Source: an uncultured Ignavibacteria bacterium (GTDB lineage Bacteria > Bacteroidota > Ignavibacteria > Kapaibacteriales > UBA2268). Taken from it: a DNA stretch of 64,000 nt. The translations under genes were made by a program, and so were the position numbers. Shown here piece by piece: positions 8,576-52,882 of this stretch. A model generated the notes under the pieces. The model made no database searches. It had not been told where the DNA came from and worked only from the letters and a program-made list of their open reading frames with translations. How positions within the stretch are numbered: the stretch's first letter is position 1; every line of letters begins with the position of its first letter. The stretch lies in NCBI GenBank assembly GCA_903862655.1, contig CAIOZA010000024.1, positions 11,716-75,715 on the forward strand, read 5' to 3'.

Positions 8576-9820
8576 TTATTCTTTGGCATAAAACTCATAA
8601 GCTACTTGCGTTGGATAATTTGTCAAAATACCGTCAAATTTGCCATCCTTGATGAAAGTGTGAATGAAATCCGGGACATCGAGTGTCCAGACAAAGGCTT
8701 GTTTACTCTGATCGTGAACTGATTTGACCATATCGGGCTGCAATCCCAATGACCATCTTGGAGCCCACACTTCTGCTGTCGATTTGACAAACAAACTGCT
8801 GTCGAGTTCGCACAAAGCCGGATAGTTCTTATGATTATCGATTTTCAAATAAGCATTCAGTATGTCTTCATCAGGAATCCCAATCAAGACTCTGATATTT
8901 CTATTCTTAGATTTTGCTTGGTCGAGGAATTTTTTCTGTATGGGAGCAATCTTACGTACAACAGAAGGATATTTAGAATCGAGCCACACAAGTTTAATAG
9001 CATTATTGTCCATCGCTGCCTTCAGAGCTTCTTCCAAAGTCGGTATCTTTTCACCGTTCTTCAGGGTGACGAACGCCCTTAGCTGAGCATAAGTATAGTC
9101 CGACACTTTGCCGATAAAGTAATCCTCATTGATCAGTCTTTTATTCATGTACTCATCGTGAAAGATAACCGGTATACTATCTTTAGTTAACTGCACATCT
9201 ATTTCGATACCATTCACACCCAACCGTTCTGAGTACTTAATCATCTCTACTGAGTTTTCAGATGCCGGCAGTCTGTCAATATTTCTACCGCCGCCGCGAT
9301 GGCTGATTATGTAGTAATTTGTGTCTATGTGGATCGGTCGCTGGTACTCGAGGGAAATTTTCTTGTCAACACCATACAATTTGTAGGTTCCGGTCAGAAT
9401 CAGAACTGATGGCTTTTTACCGGATAGCACATCGGATGCTCCGGCGGTTGGATCGATTGTTAATGACATTGAGCCTGTATTGCTGTTCTGAGCAAATCTC
9501 CAATATCCTTCGAAGTAGACAGTGCCTTTTTTCTCGCCGGCATAGAGAATTGCATAAGAGATACTTTTACCAAAAAATACTGAGAATTGATCTCCGGTCT
9601 TCTTTATCACTGCTAGTGGGCCGAACTCGTCACCACCGGGCTTTATCCTGTAGACTCCCTCAATTAAAACATCAGCTTCACTGGTAAGAGATTTGGTACC
9701 CTGTAAAACTTTCTTCTCATCAATCGGAATTGTTGGAGGAGTCAGATCCGGATTACAGGAATCCAAGATCATAACCATTACAAGAACAAGCAGGAGCCAT
9801 ATTGTTAATTTGATTTTCAT
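8576..9820 (-). CDS. glycerophosphodiester phosphodiesterase-family lipoprotein with N-terminal extra domain
   Basis: Lipoprotein signal MKIKLTIWLLLVLVMVMILDSC. GDPD catalytic motifs (IISHRGGG...ENS, IEIDVQLTKDSIPVIFHD). Confidence 0.75.
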   Translation of the reverse strand: MKIKLTIWLLLVLVMVMILDSCNPDLTPPTIPIDEKKVLQGTKSLTSEADVLIEGVYRIKPGGDEFGPLAVIKKTGDQFSVFFGKSISYAILYAGEKKGTVYFEGYWRFAQNSNTGSMSLTIDPTAGASDVLSGKKPSVLILTGTYKLYGVDKKISLEYQRPIHIDTNYYIISHRGGGRNIDRLPASENSVEMIKYSERLGVNGIEIDVQLTKDSIPVIFHDEYMNKRLINEDYFIGKVSDYTYAQLRAFVTLKNGEKIPTLEEALKAAMDNNAIKLVWLDSKYPSVVRKIAPIQKKFLDQAKSKNRNIRVLIGIPDEDILNAYLKIDNHKNYPALCELDSSLFVKSTAEVWAPRWSLGLQPDMVKSVHDQSKQAFVWTLDVPDFIHTFIKDGKFDGILTNYPTQVAYEFYAKE

Positions 9821-10491
9821 AACACAAAGCCCAGTGAGAATTCCGGGTAAAGTAAATACTCGTCAATAGTAGTGAAGCTGAGCCATGACTGATAGTAGAA
9901 CTTCGAGAAGTTGAGCTTCAAGCCCAGATTGACCCAATGATTTTTCCATAATGGCTGTTCAAGCGAAAACTTCAGTCCATAACCCGAAACTGGCTTGAAC
10001 CATTCGCCAAGCCTGATTCCTTCTGAGCTATTGTAAATATAATAGCTCTCTGCATCAATGGTTGCCGAGAGAATAAAATCCCCAAAATCGTATCCGGTGG
10101 AGATGTAAGGACTGAGTATCATACCTGTTGCTTTGACATTAGTGAAGCTCAGCTGTGGATGGCCGAACCAGCCTGCAAACTTCAATCCAGCCGCTAATGA
10201 TAAATCTGTATTCAGGAATGAATGTTGGAAGGCAAGACTTCCATAGTTAGTAAAGTAATTTGTGTTGATCTCTAAAATAGTAGTAATTTTTCCGGGTAAA
10301 CCCATTCTGAAATAGAAGTTAAGTATGGGAGCACTGTTTATTTCTTCTTCCACTACTTCTGTAGGCAGTTTCGATAAGCTTGCACCAACAATGAATTTAG
10401 TGCTCCAGTTTTGATATTCATGAGGGAAGTAGAAATACTCTTCCAAAGGCTTATCCTCAGCGAAGATAAGCGAAGAAACCATGAAGAACAA
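9817..10491 (-). CDS. hypothetical outer-membrane/secreted protein (start uncertain)
   Basis: The ORF track start is TTG at 10491. Upstream in frame, IKSKALILFFMVSSLIFA-EDK is a textbook signal peptide with no ATG/GTG/TTG before it; ATT at 10510-10512 could be the initiator. Aromatic-rich beta-barrel-like body. Confidence 0.5.
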   Translation of the reverse strand: MFFMVSSLIFAEDKPLEEYFYFPHEYQNWSTKFIVGASLSKLPTEVVEEEINSAPILNFYFRMGLPGKITTILEINTNYFTNYGSLAFQHSFLNTDLSLAAGLKFAGWFGHPQLSFTNVKATGMILSPYISTGYDFGDFILSATIDAESYYIYNSSEGIRLGEWFKPVSGYGLKFSLEQPLWKNHWVNLGLKLNFSKFYYQSWLSFTTIDEYLLYPEFSLGFVL

Positions 10492-10737
10492 TATTAGTGC
10501 TTTAGATTTAATGCTGTTATTATTAAAATTCTGTTCAATAAGCAGAGTTAGACGATGAACAGGGCTTTTGATTTAAAATTGCTTAGTTGAACTTTTTCCT
10601 ATCTTGGTGAATGGAGTATTTTATTTAGATAAAAAAATATTCTGCTACCTAGGAGTTGTAGGCTATAAAAATAAAGATTTCGCTTCGAAAGGCAGACGGC
10701 ATCTGCATTCTCAAAATTCGCAGAATTGGCAAAATAT

Positions 10738-47747: not shown

Positions 47748-49901
47748 TTATTTAGCTTTTATATCAGTGCCAAGTCTTTGCAGATAAGCAATCAATGCTA
47801 TTATCTCGGCACTTTCTTTAACATCGGTAACTCCTTCTGCGACAAGCTGGGTTGCTATCAACTTAGCCTGTGTCTTTAGATCCTGAGGAGCAACTTTGTC
47901 ATATCCGACAGGATATGGAACTCCAAGAGTCATCATTGCCGCAATCTTAGCAGAGACAGATTGAATATCCATTTCCTTGGTCAGGAGCCATGGGAATGCA
48001 GGCATAATAGATCCGGGAGAAATATCTCTTGGATTATTCATGTGCCAGTAATGCCATGAATTGTTGTACTTACCGCCTTCTCTGTGGAGATCGGGTCCGG
48101 TACGTTTAGAACCCCACTGGAATGGATGGTCGTAAACAAATTCGCCCACTTTTGAGTATTCTCTGTATCTTTCTGTTTCCGAGCGGAATGGTCTTACCAT
48201 CTGAGAATGGCATGTATAGCATCCTTCGCGAATATACATATCTCTTCCATAAAGTTCCAAAGGTGTATATGGCTTAACGCTTGCAATTGTCGGAACATTG
48301 GATTTAATCAATATCATTGGGATAATTTCAACAGCTCCGCCAATTGCTATAACAATAGTTGCAACAAACAACATCGCCATTGGCTTGCGTTCTAGCCATC
48401 TGTGTTGTCTTTCGCCAGTTTCTTTAATGTATTGAAAAGGGAAAGGTGTCGCCTGATCTTTTTCATTTTTAACAAATGATCCCTGCTTAGCCGTTTTAAC
48501 TAAATTGTAGACCATCAAGCAAGCACCGACAAGATATATTGTGCCTCCGGTGGCTCTTATCATATACATTGGTAAAATCTGAGTTACAGTTTCAAGGAAG
48601 TTTGGATACTGCAAAACTCCTTCAGGAGTGAATTGCTTCCACATCAACCCCTGAGTAACACCTGCTATATACATTGGAATTACATAAGTAAGGATTCCTA
48701 GAGTGCCAATCCAAAAATGAGCATTAGCCAATTTCTTAGAATATAATTTTGTGTTCCAAAGCTTTGGAATTAGCCAGTATAAAACACCGAATGTGAGGAA
48801 CCCGTTCCAACCAAGTACACCAACGTGGACGTGAGCGATTGTCCAGTCTGTATAATGCGAAAGAGCATTGATACTCTTAACAGCAAGCATCGGGCCCTCA
48901 AGCGTAGCCATACCATAAGCAGTAACAGCAACAACCATGAATTTAAGAATAGGATCTTCTCTTACTTTATCCCATGCGCCACGTAATGTGAGCAATCCAT
49001 TGAGCATACCACCCCAGGATGGAGCAATAAGCATTATTGAGAATACTGTCCCCAATGACTGTGCCCAATCGGGTAATGATGTGTATAATAAGTGATGTGG
49101 TCCAGCCCATATATATATAAACAGGAGTGACCAGAAATGAATAATCGATAATTTGTACGAATATACCGGTCTATTGGCTGCTTTCGGCAGAAAGTAGTAC
49201 ATTAAACCAAGATAAGGTGTGGTTAAAAAGAATGCAACGGCATTATGACCATACCACCACTGAACCAAAGCATCCTGAACACCGGCATAAACTGAATAAC
49301 TGTGCAACCAGGTATAAGGCAATTCCATTGAATTTACCACATGCAATACAGTAATTGTTACCCAAGATGCAATGTAAAACCAGATTGCAACATAAAGATG
49401 TCTTTCACGCCTCTTCAGGATTGTCATGAACATGTTCAATCCGAAAATTATCCAGACAATAGCAATCAGGATATCAATTGGCCACTCCAGCTCGGCGTAT
49501 TCTTTACCTGTTGTGATTCCCGCATGGAAAGTGATAGCAGCCGATGCTATGATTAATTGCCAACCCCAGAAATGTAACTTGCCCAGCATATCGCTGAACA
49601 TTCTGGTTTTGCATAATCTTTGCAGTGAATAATATACTCCCATGAAAATACCATTGCCCACAAAAGCAAATATGGCTGCATTTGTGTGAATGGGTCTTAT
49701 ACGTCCGAATGTTAAAAATTCTGAACCAAAGTTTAATTGTGGCATGAATATAGCAAATGCGACATAAACTCCATAGAGAAATGCAGCTATACCCCAGACA
49801 ACAGTTGCCATAGCAAAGAGTTTTACGATGCCATTGTCATAGTAAAAAGTCTCTAAATTTGCCTGATATTCATTTGATGAAGCGGTAGAGTGTTCAGCCA
49901 T
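47748..49901 (-). CDS. ccoNO: cbb3-type cytochrome c oxidase subunits I+II fused (CcoNO)
   Basis: 717 aa. Heme-copper oxidase subunit I (12+ TM helices, His ligands HFWSL…, HHLLY, HVHVGV) fused to the CcoO monoheme domain (CYTCHSQMVRPF, …GPDLHREGGKYNNSWHYWHM). Confidence 0.9.
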   Translation of the reverse strand: MAEHSTASSNEYQANLETFYYDNGIVKLFAMATVVWGIAAFLYGVYVAFAIFMPQLNFGSEFLTFGRIRPIHTNAAIFAFVGNGIFMGVYYSLQRLCKTRMFSDMLGKLHFWGWQLIIASAAITFHAGITTGKEYAELEWPIDILIAIVWIIFGLNMFMTILKRRERHLYVAIWFYIASWVTITVLHVVNSMELPYTWLHSYSVYAGVQDALVQWWYGHNAVAFFLTTPYLGLMYYFLPKAANRPVYSYKLSIIHFWSLLFIYIWAGPHHLLYTSLPDWAQSLGTVFSIMLIAPSWGGMLNGLLTLRGAWDKVREDPILKFMVVAVTAYGMATLEGPMLAVKSINALSHYTDWTIAHVHVGVLGWNGFLTFGVLYWLIPKLWNTKLYSKKLANAHFWIGTLGILTYVIPMYIAGVTQGLMWKQFTPEGVLQYPNFLETVTQILPMYMIRATGGTIYLVGACLMVYNLVKTAKQGSFVKNEKDQATPFPFQYIKETGERQHRWLERKPMAMLFVATIVIAIGGAVEIIPMILIKSNVPTIASVKPYTPLELYGRDMYIREGCYTCHSQMVRPFRSETERYREYSKVGEFVYDHPFQWGSKRTGPDLHREGGKYNNSWHYWHMNNPRDISPGSIMPAFPWLLTKEMDIQSVSAKIAAMMTLGVPYPVGYDKVAPQDLKTQAKLIATQLVAEGVTDVKESAEIIALIAYLQRLGTDIKAK

Positions 49902-50087
49902 TTAATTCACCTGATTTATTCTTAGATCGTTATTTTCTTCATTATTTTTATCGTTATCCATAAGGATTCTCAAAGAGGGTGTGAATGTGTCTTCATACTG
50001 ATTATTTTTGACAGCCCATAGAAAAGCAGCTAGAAATGAAATTGCCAGAGTAAAACTTATCACAATTAAGATCAACATTACAGTCAT
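49902..50087 (-). CDS. ccoS: cbb3 oxidase maturation protein CcoS/FixS
   Basis: 61 aa with a single TM helix (LILIVISFTLAISFLAAFLWAV). Sits between ccoI and ccoNO, as FixS does. Confidence 0.6.
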   Translation of the reverse strand: MTVMLILIVISFTLAISFLAAFLWAVKNNQYEDTFTPSLRILMDNDKNNEENNDLRINQVN

Positions 50088-50235
50088 TTATGTTCTTTCG
50101 TCAATTTCGATAGTACACAATATAAATGAAAATAAACTAATTATCAAGAACATTTTTGTCTTAAATGAAACCATAATTCATTAACGAGCATCAGCACTAC
50201 TTTTAGAATAATCTACAGGAAATTTTTGCCTCAAA

Positions 50236-52548
50236 TTATATGTGCAGTTTCTTTGCATCATAGCGTACTTTCAAAACTGTAAATGCCATTATACTAAAAG
50301 AACTAACAGGCATAAATATTGCCGAAATCAATGGTGTCAGATTGCCCTGAACAGCAAAGTACAATCCAATAAAATTATACAATATAGAAATAGCAAAGCT
50401 AATATACACAGTTTGAACGCTTTTATTTGTCAGATGAATAAATGCCGGGATTTTTTCGATATTATCAGCCTGCATAATCGCATCCGAGCCAGGAGTGAAG
50501 CTTGAATCTGAATTAGTTACCGCTATTCCCACATTACTCTGTCTGATTGCTCCGGCATCATTCAAACCATCGCCTATCATCATTACTTTTTTATTATCAG
50601 CCTGAAGTTTCTCAATGTGCTCCAGCTTATCAATCGGAAGCTGATTAAACTTAATCACCGTCTTACCATCGGTTATTTGATTCAGATTCTCTTTCTCTGC
50701 ATCATTATCTCCAGAAAGTATCGTTATAGTATATTTTCTTACTAATTCGGAAATAGTGTCCTTAATATTTGATCTGTAAGATGGCCTGACAATATAATAA
50801 CCCATCAGCACATTATTGATTGAAAGAAAAACAGAAGATTCAGTTTGTTGTGTTTCAAAATTAAGATCTTCGAGTACGGAACAATTCGTTAATGGATTTT
50901 TAACAAATCCAAGTTTACCCATTCTGACCGATACACCTTCGAATTCGGCTTCAATACCTTTGCCGGGAGTCTCAGTGAAATTTCTTATCTCAACATTATT
51001 TTTATCTTTATGGAATAGGAATACCAGTCTGCTGAGCGGGTGGGTGGAATGCTTAGCTATGGATTTGATAAGGATAGTTTCATCTTCGCTTAATGTTTTT
51101 CCCAAATATTCAACGCTGCTTTTCGAAATGTCAGTCAGTGTGCCGGTTTTGTCAAAAATTATAGAATCAATCTTTGAAATACTTTCAACAATATTAGCAT
51201 TCTTCAGAAAGAAACTGTTCCTGCTGAAGACTCTTAGAACTGTGCCATAAGTATAAGGCAGAACCAGGGCAAATGCACAGGGACATGCAATGATAAGAAC
51301 AGATGTGAACGAATTAAAAGCTAAATTTAGATTCTTAGGTAACCAATAAAGAAAACTGCCGCTTGCCAGCAGAAGTATTCCAATGGTGAACCACATTGCG
51401 GCTGTATTTGAGATATTGGAAGAATAACTGTCGTCATTCTTTGCGAAAGCCTTATGGTTCCATAGTTCAGTGATATAACTCTGGAAAAATGCCTTCACGG
51501 CTTTAACTTCGATAGAGCTTCCCTGGTGGATGCCTCCGGCATAAATTTTCTGTCCTTTAGCCACATCCACCGGTTTTGATTCCCCGCTAACAAAACTGTA
51601 GTCGATCATTGCTGAATCTGACTCCAATATTGAATCAGTTGGAACAATCTCGTTGTTGCGAATAATGAGATTATCGTCCGGTTTGATTTCATTCAAAGAT
51701 ACGAATTCTTCAACATCGTTGCGCTTCCGGATGACAGAAAGCGGGAAATAGGATTTATAGTCACGATCGAACGAAAGGCTATAAAAGGTTTTCTGCCTGA
51801 ATATCCTGCCGACTAACAGTAGGAAAACTAATCCGGCCATTGAATCGATGAATCCAGGACCCCTGCCGCTTAATATATCTATTGCACTTCTTATAAGCAA
51901 AGCTAAAATGCCAAGACTGATCGGAAGATCTATATTGATATAACCAAGTTTCAGACTGGTCCATGCTGTTTTGAAGAAGTCCGATGCCGAATACATCAAT
52001 GCTCCGCCAAGCAACAAGCTCAAATATCCGAAGTACTTTTTAAATTCAGGCTCAAGAAGCCCACCGGACAAGTATTCTGGAAAAGCAAAAAGCATAACAT
52101 TGCCGAAAGCGAATCCTGCGACACCGACCTTTAGAAAAATTGACTTGTTAATTCCAATTGTCTTTTTGCCCTCGATGTCAGATATATTCAGATGTGGTTT
52201 ATATCCAATAGAAGTGATAAGTTCGACTATCTTTCGTAATGATGTCTGCTCTTCATTGTAGGTAATTGAAATATCTTTCTTGAGGAAATTCACTGTTGAT
52301 TCAAGCACACCTTTGTCAAGTCGGTAAAGATTTTCCAACAGCCAGATACAGGCACTACAGTATATCTCCGGAATGAACAGAGTAATCTTAGAAGTTCCAT
52401 TAATACTAAATTGAAGCAGTTTTTCCTGTATTCCTTTGTCGTCCAGAAAAGCAAATTCTGATTTGTCGAAACTCTTAGGTTTGATGCCACTTTTGCGGGC
52501 TAATTTATAGTAATTATCAAGGTTATTGTCATTGAGAAGTTCATGCAC
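50236..52548 (-). CDS. ccoI: copper-translocating P1B-type ATPase CcoI/FixI (annotated from first canonical start; true N-terminus probably ~30 codons upstream)
   Basis: HMA-like CSAC. TM CPC motif (IIACPCAFALV). DKTGTLT phosphorylation site. GDGLNDAGA hinge. Upstream in frame, with no ATG/GTG/TTG, lies …DVVCYHCGDYC…FCCSGCLF, matching the conserved CcoI N-terminus (CYHC…CC.GC). Confidence 0.85.
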   Translation of the reverse strand: MHELLNDNNLDNYYKLARKSGIKPKSFDKSEFAFLDDKGIQEKLLQFSINGTSKITLFIPEIYCSACIWLLENLYRLDKGVLESTVNFLKKDISITYNEEQTSLRKIVELITSIGYKPHLNISDIEGKKTIGINKSIFLKVGVAGFAFGNVMLFAFPEYLSGGLLEPEFKKYFGYLSLLLGGALMYSASDFFKTAWTSLKLGYINIDLPISLGILALLIRSAIDILSGRGPGFIDSMAGLVFLLLVGRIFRQKTFYSLSFDRDYKSYFPLSVIRKRNDVEEFVSLNEIKPDDNLIIRNNEIVPTDSILESDSAMIDYSFVSGESKPVDVAKGQKIYAGGIHQGSSIEVKAVKAFFQSYITELWNHKAFAKNDDSYSSNISNTAAMWFTIGILLLASGSFLYWLPKNLNLAFNSFTSVLIIACPCAFALVLPYTYGTVLRVFSRNSFFLKNANIVESISKIDSIIFDKTGTLTDISKSSVEYLGKTLSEDETILIKSIAKHSTHPLSRLVFLFHKDKNNVEIRNFTETPGKGIEAEFEGVSVRMGKLGFVKNPLTNCSVLEDLNFETQQTESSVFLSINNVLMGYYIVRPSYRSNIKDTISELVRKYTITILSGDNDAEKENLNQITDGKTVIKFNQLPIDKLEHIEKLQADNKKVMMIGDGLNDAGAIRQSNVGIAVTNSDSSFTPGSDAIMQADNIEKIPAFIHLTNKSVQTVYISFAISILYNFIGLYFAVQGNLTPLISAIFMPVSSFSIMAFTVLKVRYDAKKLHI

Positions 52549-52882
52549 AAAAAGACAGCCAGAACAACAGAACGATTTTTCTTCCCGCTGGATAATCTCA
52601 GTTGTACAGTAATCACCACAATGATAGCAAACTACATCAATATTTTCTGAAGACTTAATAATGTCTATTGATTTTTTTAGTTTAGTCTAAAAATTAGTAT
52701 ACAAACTTAACTACATTTGATATATTTTCAAATTCAATTTTCAATTTAATAATTTTCTGATCTATTAAGAATTTTAATGCTTCTCGGAGCATTTAATGTG
52801 CTATTATTTTTTTATATTAACAAATAAAGTCATTATATTTGTATTGAATAATACAATTATCAAAGCTGTTAAAGGCAATACA

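Follow-up and report, generated by a model that had tools for sequence, protein, structure and literature searches.

The window, as we call the whole stretch of 64,000 nucleotides of DNA that was analysed, carries on its minus strand a cbb3 oxidase locus in which ccoI is followed downstream, on the same strand, by ccoS (49902-50087; TIGR00847), a fused ccoNO (47748-49901; NF011053), ccoP and ccoG. Related loci share this gene order. The gene upstream of ccoI (52796 onwards) is divergent from it, and a neighbouring gene in the window encodes a T9SS sorting domain. Mechanical ORF calling places ccoI at 50236..52548 (minus strand), with a GTG start and a product of 770 aa. Between the stop codon of ccoI and the start of ccoS lies a gap of 148 nt (50088-50235), which contains a sigma-70-like TTGATA-17-TATATT at 50147-50119 (minus strand). 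The yield of the sigma-70 promoter scan was not above shuffled expectation, and no terminator-like hairpin was detected between ccoI and ccoS; the ccoS and ccoNO genes may have a promoter of their own.

The ATPase core of the encoded protein is readily recognized through the P-type ATPase domain PF00122 (E=2.3e-30) and the HAD domain PF00702 (E=9e-17), and both its DKTGT phosphorylation motif (D503, K504, T505, G506, T507) and its transmembrane CPC metal site (C459, P460, C461) are invariant in the family alignment. A CopZ-like HMA domain at 52198..52383 (minus strand; PF00403, E=7.4e-7) supplies the second N-terminal metal site. The first such site, N-terminal metal-binding site 1 or PF12156 (ATPase-cat_bd), maps to 52411..52629 on the minus strand and includes the motifs CYHC at 52629-52618 and FCCSGC at 52572-52555. 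This match covers residues 20-92 of the ORF when extended upstream, spans profile positions 2-83 of 86, and is well above threshold (E=1.9e-11; 44.9 bits versus a cutoff of 27). The called GTG is residue 47 of the extended ORF and falls inside the match; since PF12156 runs across it, translation from this codon would drop the first 27 residues of the domain together with all six of its cysteines. The arrangement that characterizes CcoI/FixI, namely PF12156/N-MBS1 ahead of HMA, is found here only with the start-less extension translated, as its dN/dS supports. On the basis of homology, the gene can be assigned to CcoI/FixI, i.e. the CopA2-type Cu(I) P1B-ATPases, with copper export as its predicted function.

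Upstream of the called GTG (52548-52546) the frame remains open for 46 sense codons, TKLKKSIDIIKSSENIDVVCYHCGDYCTTEIIQREEKSFCCSGCLF, until it is closed by a TAG at 52689-52687 (minus strand), and no in-frame ATG, GTG or TTG occurs among these codons. The only in-frame near-cognates noted in the extension are ATA at 52668-52666 and three ATT codons at 52662-52660, 52659-52657 and 52641-52639. An earlier note on this DNA, made from the sequence of the window, had reported both the open stretch and these candidate initiators, and our re-reading of the minus strand reproduced its coordinates exactly. Among the 45 long ORFs of the window this start-less open 5' extension is the longest, the runner-up having 27 codons. 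The latter belongs to the ORF at 9817..10491 (minus strand, TTG start; 9817-10572 with its extension), for which no Pfam match was found. No other window gene with a domain cut by its start call was recovered among the candidates checked, i.e. the ORFs with long extensions.

A protein search listed 120 relatives, with the window's own protein among them. Four of those listed are shortened calls without PF12156 (770, 770, 727 and 770 aa), and these are precisely the window protein and its three closest relatives, which share 80-89% identity with it. The clade thus delineated comprises the window lineage and the lineages of L001 (90% identical protein), L014 (87%) and L015 (80%), each from a separate assembly, and its organisms are documented through metagenome assemblies only. 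Just four clusters in the protein database belong to it, and a metagenome scan for further members gained only outgroups, with a best match of 66% identity. The 116 more distant homologs listed, with at most 61% identity, all begin 2-31 residues before the CxxC...CCxGC region. In a complementary survey of starts, each fetched locus was scanned for the Cys motif and traced back to the in-frame stop. A canonical start was found upstream of the motif in 81 of the 84 distinct loci, with ATG available in 45 and only GTG or TTG in 36; the three loci that remain are none other than the clade members L001, L014 and L015. The earlier note had proposed alignment with orthologs, and had named as contrary evidence any that begin at the equivalent of the GTG and lack the Cys region; no such ortholog was encountered, the 116 distant homologs listed and the 81 other loci all having the Cys region after a canonical start. 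The ccoI family seems to favour weak start codons, with the qualification that the GTG/TTG-only count of 36/84 ignores shared ancestry, e.g. the loci L065-L096 mostly have a common GTG at position -5.

The nearest named homologs of the window ccoI are from Kapabacteria, Ignavibacteriae and Bacteroidota. These homologs, the T9SS sorting domain of the neighbouring gene and the fused ccoNO are the grounds on which the organism can be assigned to the FCB group. The L001 contig (CAYXFU010000036.1) is titled 'uncultured Hyphomicrobiales bacterium', and the arrangement of its cbb3 locus is near-identical to that of the window; given this likeness and the nearest named homologs, the label looks wrong. 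Calls for the neighbouring ccoS are inconsistent within this set of loci, the product having 83 aa in L014 (3904-4155), 61 aa both in the window and in L001, and 58 aa both in L015 and in L103, a further locus of the L001 lineage.

The open frame without a canonical start is retained in all four lineages of the clade. Measured between the ATT at 52659 and the stop codon, it is 807 codons long in each of them, with zero indels. Pairwise comparison of the 36 codons that separate this ATT from the GTG gave a dN of 0.05-0.14 and a dS of 0.7 to saturated, hence a dN/dS of 0.02-0.10, and the substitutions are mostly at third codon positions (e.g. [2,2,17] and [4,4,19] by codon position). In the rest of ccoI, taken as the following 100 codons and the 670 after them, the dN/dS values and the codon-position pattern are like those of the extension. 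This is the signature of translated sequence under purifying selection: the 36 upstream codons are protein-coding and constrained, and a canonical start is absent in all four lineages. In a 49-sequence family alignment, numbered from the ATT at 52659, the residues C11, H13, C14, F30, C31, C32, G34 and C35 are invariant. The contention that a metal-binding motif would be lost with a start at the GTG is thus borne out, given that the extension forms a part of PF12156, that its Cys, His and Gly columns are invariant and that it is under purifying selection.

The GTG itself reads GTA in L001 and in L097, L098 and L103, and hence it cannot be a conserved start. The residue that it encodes in the window, V38, is likewise invariant in the 49-sequence alignment. 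The same alignment served to build an AlphaFold2 model (mean pLDDT 79.7), in which residues 1-6 form a disordered tail, residues 23-30 a small hairpin and residues 33-44 a helix that runs across V38; this N-terminal region is predicted with moderate confidence (pLDDT 66-75), which is to be expected for a model that contains no metal. A PDB sequence search with the N-terminal domain found no relative. Taken together, the comparative evidence identifies the called GTG (52546..52548, minus strand) as the codon of an internal Val38 of the revised protein rather than a start. Gene calls in the four lineages of the clade are all shortened, to 770, 727, 701 or 689 aa, and the public calls for its ccoI in NCBI, ENA, JGI and Logan (689-770 aa) are almost certainly all too short.

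The explanation that best accounts for these observations, and which we consider highly probable as a whole, is that in the window lineage and its three closest known relatives the initiator tRNA reads a non-canonical AUU to start ccoI, most likely the ATT at 52659-52657. The revised gene would extend over 50236..52659 on the minus strand (807 codons and a stop) and would specify an 807-residue CopA2-type copper ATPase with the N-terminus (f)Met-KSSENIDVVCYHCGDYC..., in which the Cys-rich metal-binding domain is kept complete. This delimitation draws on the translation, the domains, the equal length in four lineages and the low dN/dS throughout. The weak start would further hold a low-copy ATPase scarce although its gene comes first, ahead of ccoS and ccoNO. 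That the start keeps the ATPase scarce is plausible, and it finds mild support in the 36/84 share of loci with GTG or TTG only, a figure not corrected for phylogeny. The position in the operon was also considered as a specific reason for a weak start, and it was rejected: the weak start is not tied to operon position because the canonical-start homologs share the order ccoI-ccoS-ccoNO.

Of the alternatives that dispense with a near-cognate start, two are of negligible probability. The earlier note had offered either initiation at a non-canonical codon or a substitution in the assembly, and it is the former that has held up. A single G-to-T change does convert ATG to ATT, but three other lineages likewise have this ATT and lack a canonical start, and one of them is identical in four fetched loci. 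L001 matches L097 and L098, from two JGI samples, base for base across the gene and leader, and L103, from a Logan run, is identical to it across the gene and the leader shown. An assembly error is therefore excluded, since the four identical sequences come from different sources (NCBI, two JGI samples and one Logan run). The other is entry from a canonical start further upstream, through a frameshift or past the TAG by readthrough, for which an in-frame ATG at 52716-52714 is present in the window; this ATG, however, immediately meets a TAG, with a second TAG later, and a 1-nt indel in L001 alters the frame relation. In each lineage the 300 nt upstream were searched in every frame, and no canonical-start ORF was found to extend to 30 nt or less from the ATT; frameshifting and readthrough are thereby ruled out. 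Neither sequencing error nor an upstream ORF accounts for the missing canonical start. A very remote chance is left to the proposal that the Cys domain is no longer made, in which case the GTG, or a canonical codon after it, would be the start and the similarity upstream a remnant in decay. Every automatic gene call does start there, and N-MBS1 is important but not essential in Rhodobacter (PMC8475189). Nevertheless, dN/dS of 0.02-0.10 with saturated dS is incompatible with decay, and four lineages have accumulated zero indels or stops; moreover, the GTG lies inside a predicted helix, and where it is GTA, in L001, use of the next canonical codons would cost the protein the beginning of the HMA domain as well. 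That translation begins ahead of the Cys motif, at a near-cognate codon of the AUN type, is accordingly the reading that the comparisons most strongly favour, and we regard it as very probable.

Which of the near-cognates is used is a separate question, to which L015 is relevant. Three codons ahead of its ATT aligned with 52659-52657, this lineage has an in-frame TAA, and its near-cognates before the first Cys are an ATT ten codons before that residue (-10) and an ATT four codons before it (-4), and these only. If the start is shared, this TAA excludes the ATA at 52668 and the ATT at 52662 (52660..52668, minus strand), opposite which L015 has TTA and TGT, and leaves two candidates, the -10 ATT and the -4 ATT. 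Thus, of the initiators that the earlier note had listed, the ATT codons at 52659-52657 and 52641-52639 stand, and the ATA at 52668-52666 and the ATT at 52662-52660 are unlikely to be shared starts. A lineage-specific start further upstream, i.e. this ATA or ATT in the window and another codon in L015, is accordingly improbable. In its favour, the positions are near-cognate (ATA/ATT) in three of the four lineages and obtain the best score, owing to an A-run upstream, from a start-context weight matrix that is crude and overfitted, being built from 35 window genes; against it, the codons are missing from L015 with its in-frame TAA, and the stretch from there to -10 diverges like non-coding DNA.

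Between the two shared candidates, several features favour the -10 codon (52657..52659, minus strand). All four lineages have ATT here, no near-cognate lies further 5' in the frame that stays open in L015, and the alignment turns at this point from a leader that diverges in L015 to conserved sequence. The nearest outgroups have tails of 7-13 residues before the Cys motif, and in L099, the nearest of them, the predicted TTG start aligns with the -10 ATT (LNSINIEKIC versus IKSSENIDVVC). Against it, the A at -3 of this codon is replaced by T in L015. Initiation at the -4 codon (52639..52641, minus strand), where three lineages have ATT and L001 has ATC, would instead make ATTAAxTCTTCAGAAAAT a part of the 5' UTR and the ribosome-loading region. 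This alternative is clearly less probable than -10, and it is the most serious of those considered. The 15 nt upstream of -4 are almost invariant while synonymous sites elsewhere are saturated; this stretch includes the A-rich TCTTCA(G/A)AAAAT that precedes the codon, and the A-rich TCTTCAGAAAAT directly upstream could be its initiation region. An A is present at its -3 position in all four lineages, and tails before the CxxC in homologs can be as short as 2 residues. Conversely, the ATC of L001, which looks like an ordinary synonymous change, contrasts with the invariant -10 codon, and the outgroup tails and the L099 alignment agree with the -10 peptide. The context matrix places -4 below -10, a weak indication given that it does not truly separate the two. 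On balance, the choice of -10 over -4, drawn from four lineages, is a weak one, and we put the chances of the ATT at 52659-52657 specifically being the start at roughly even. The two candidates differ in their products: the tryptic peptide SSENIDVVCYHCGDYCTTEIIQR, or SSK/NIAVVCFHC... in the L001 lineage, would arise only with initiation at or upstream of -10.

The leader upstream of the preferred ATT contains a promoter-like TTTG-N19-TAAGTTTG at 52702..52732 (minus strand), which resembles the Bacteroidota-type -33/-7 consensus. It was identified by a pattern match, and the TAnnTTTG box is conserved, having its end 42-43 nt from the ATT in each of the four lineages; transcription is predicted to start near 52697. 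This promoter is regarded as tentative because the pattern was found 6 times in the window versus 4.3 expected, i.e. with no enrichment. In the presumed 5' UTR lies a palindrome, TTAG-N6-CTAA (52677..52690, minus strand), whose arms are invariant across the four lineages although synonymous sites are saturated, and which could be an operator or leader element. About 12 nt separate it from the TAnnTTTG box upstream, and it includes the in-frame TAG (52687..52689) that closes the frame. From the -7 box to the ATT, three of the four lineages are free of ATG, GTG and TTG in any frame, the exception being L001, in which a single in-frame TTG at -36 is followed two codons later by a TAG; the L001 leader also has a 1-nt indel.

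An Rfam scan of the whole window returned no match, and hence no riboswitch or leader of a known type. When folded, the RNA of the leader and start region did not exceed shuffled sequence in stability (z=+0.43) and gave no evidence of a structured initiation element, and the consensus fold was weak, with no convincing covariation. No SD-like element precedes the ccoI start. SD-like GGAG/AGGA motifs do occur upstream of some window genes, and the organism may therefore not be SD-blind. A further conjecture is that the AUU of this clade is a selected regulatory device that, jointly with the conserved palindrome and the nucleotide-level conservation of the start region, would let CcoI synthesis track initiation fidelity, as set by the level of IF3, or a copper- or oxygen-responsive factor. 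We consider this improbable; if true, it would provide a translational control point for the copper supply of the cbb3 oxidase in an SD-poor lineage.

In E. coli, AUA, AUC and AUU initiate at about 1-2% of the level of AUG, and infC and pcnB naturally use AUU (bioRxiv 10.1101/063800). IF3 discriminates against AUU-type non-canonical codons (PMC9723500), because of which low or tunable expression is to be expected from an AUU start. Like infC, which encodes IF3, and pcnB, the clade ccoI would be a functional gene whose sole available initiator is AUU. Unlike the infC AUU, for which a part in the autoregulation of IF3 has been demonstrated and which acts together with a Shine-Dalgarno sequence, that of ccoI has no SD-like element and no link to the translation machinery, and its start is deduced from sequence. 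A closer parallel in terms of annotation is pncA (bbe22) of Borrelia burgdorferi, which has an AUU start and for which databases still list a shortened protein (PMC13398362). In both cases the database protein is cut at the first canonical codon and the AUU start restores N-terminal residues, which in pncA are needed for the complete fold. The pncA start has been proven genetically, biochemically and by a crystal structure, whereas that of ccoI rests on comparative analysis; conversely, the pncA case is from one species and the ccoI case is conserved across four lineages. The clade ccoI would thus be added to the few bacterial genes known to initiate at AUU (infC, pcnB and Borrelia pncA), and it represents a clear correction of annotation rather than a new mechanism.

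With respect to function, the best point of reference is CcoI of Rhodobacter capsulatus, whose ATP-driven export of Cu(I) is required for maturation of the cbb3 oxidase (PMC8475189). N-MBS1 is specific to CcoI-type pumps and, in Rhodobacter, is important though not essential for this maturation; it has been proposed to regulate the ATPase activity (PMC8475189). The window protein shares with R. capsulatus CcoI an N-terminal CxxC site, a CopZ-like HMA domain, the CPC membrane site, DKTGT and the linkage to ccoS and ccoNOQP. It differs in having CYHC followed by FCCSGC and a non-canonical start, as against a CPAC motif and a canonical start in Rhodobacter, and its function is predicted from homology. 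As for the mode of initiation, SD-independent Bacteroidia choose starts through low structure, upstream adenines (-3, -6, -12, -13) and depletion of AUG (PMC6847099). The ccoI leader is similarly A/T-rich, free of an SD and, in three of the four lineages, free of start codons; the match is a loose one, given that the upstream adenine positions fit only partly and that some window genes have SD-like motifs.

The shortened calls remove the entire metal-binding site specific to CcoI, and they would mislead any domain-based classification of these pumps. As a probable natural AUU start, the clade ccoI would be a rare case in being conserved across species, in lying outside the translation machinery and in coming from a lineage with weak or absent Shine-Dalgarno usage. 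Cases of this kind would be useful for training start-site predictors and for studying start choice without SD pairing. The 36/84 loci with GTG or TTG only hint that weak initiation might be generally favoured for the CcoI pump, of which AUU would be the extreme.

A minor feature of the start region concerns a second reading frame. Out of frame with ccoI, a TTG at 52640-52638 is followed by an ATG at 52637-52635 and then by a TAG, forming a one-codon start-stop ORF (window 52632-52640, minus strand) that might siphon some of the initiating ribosomes. In this form it is restricted to the window lineage; L014 has TTG-CTG-TAG, and the element is missing from L001 and L015.
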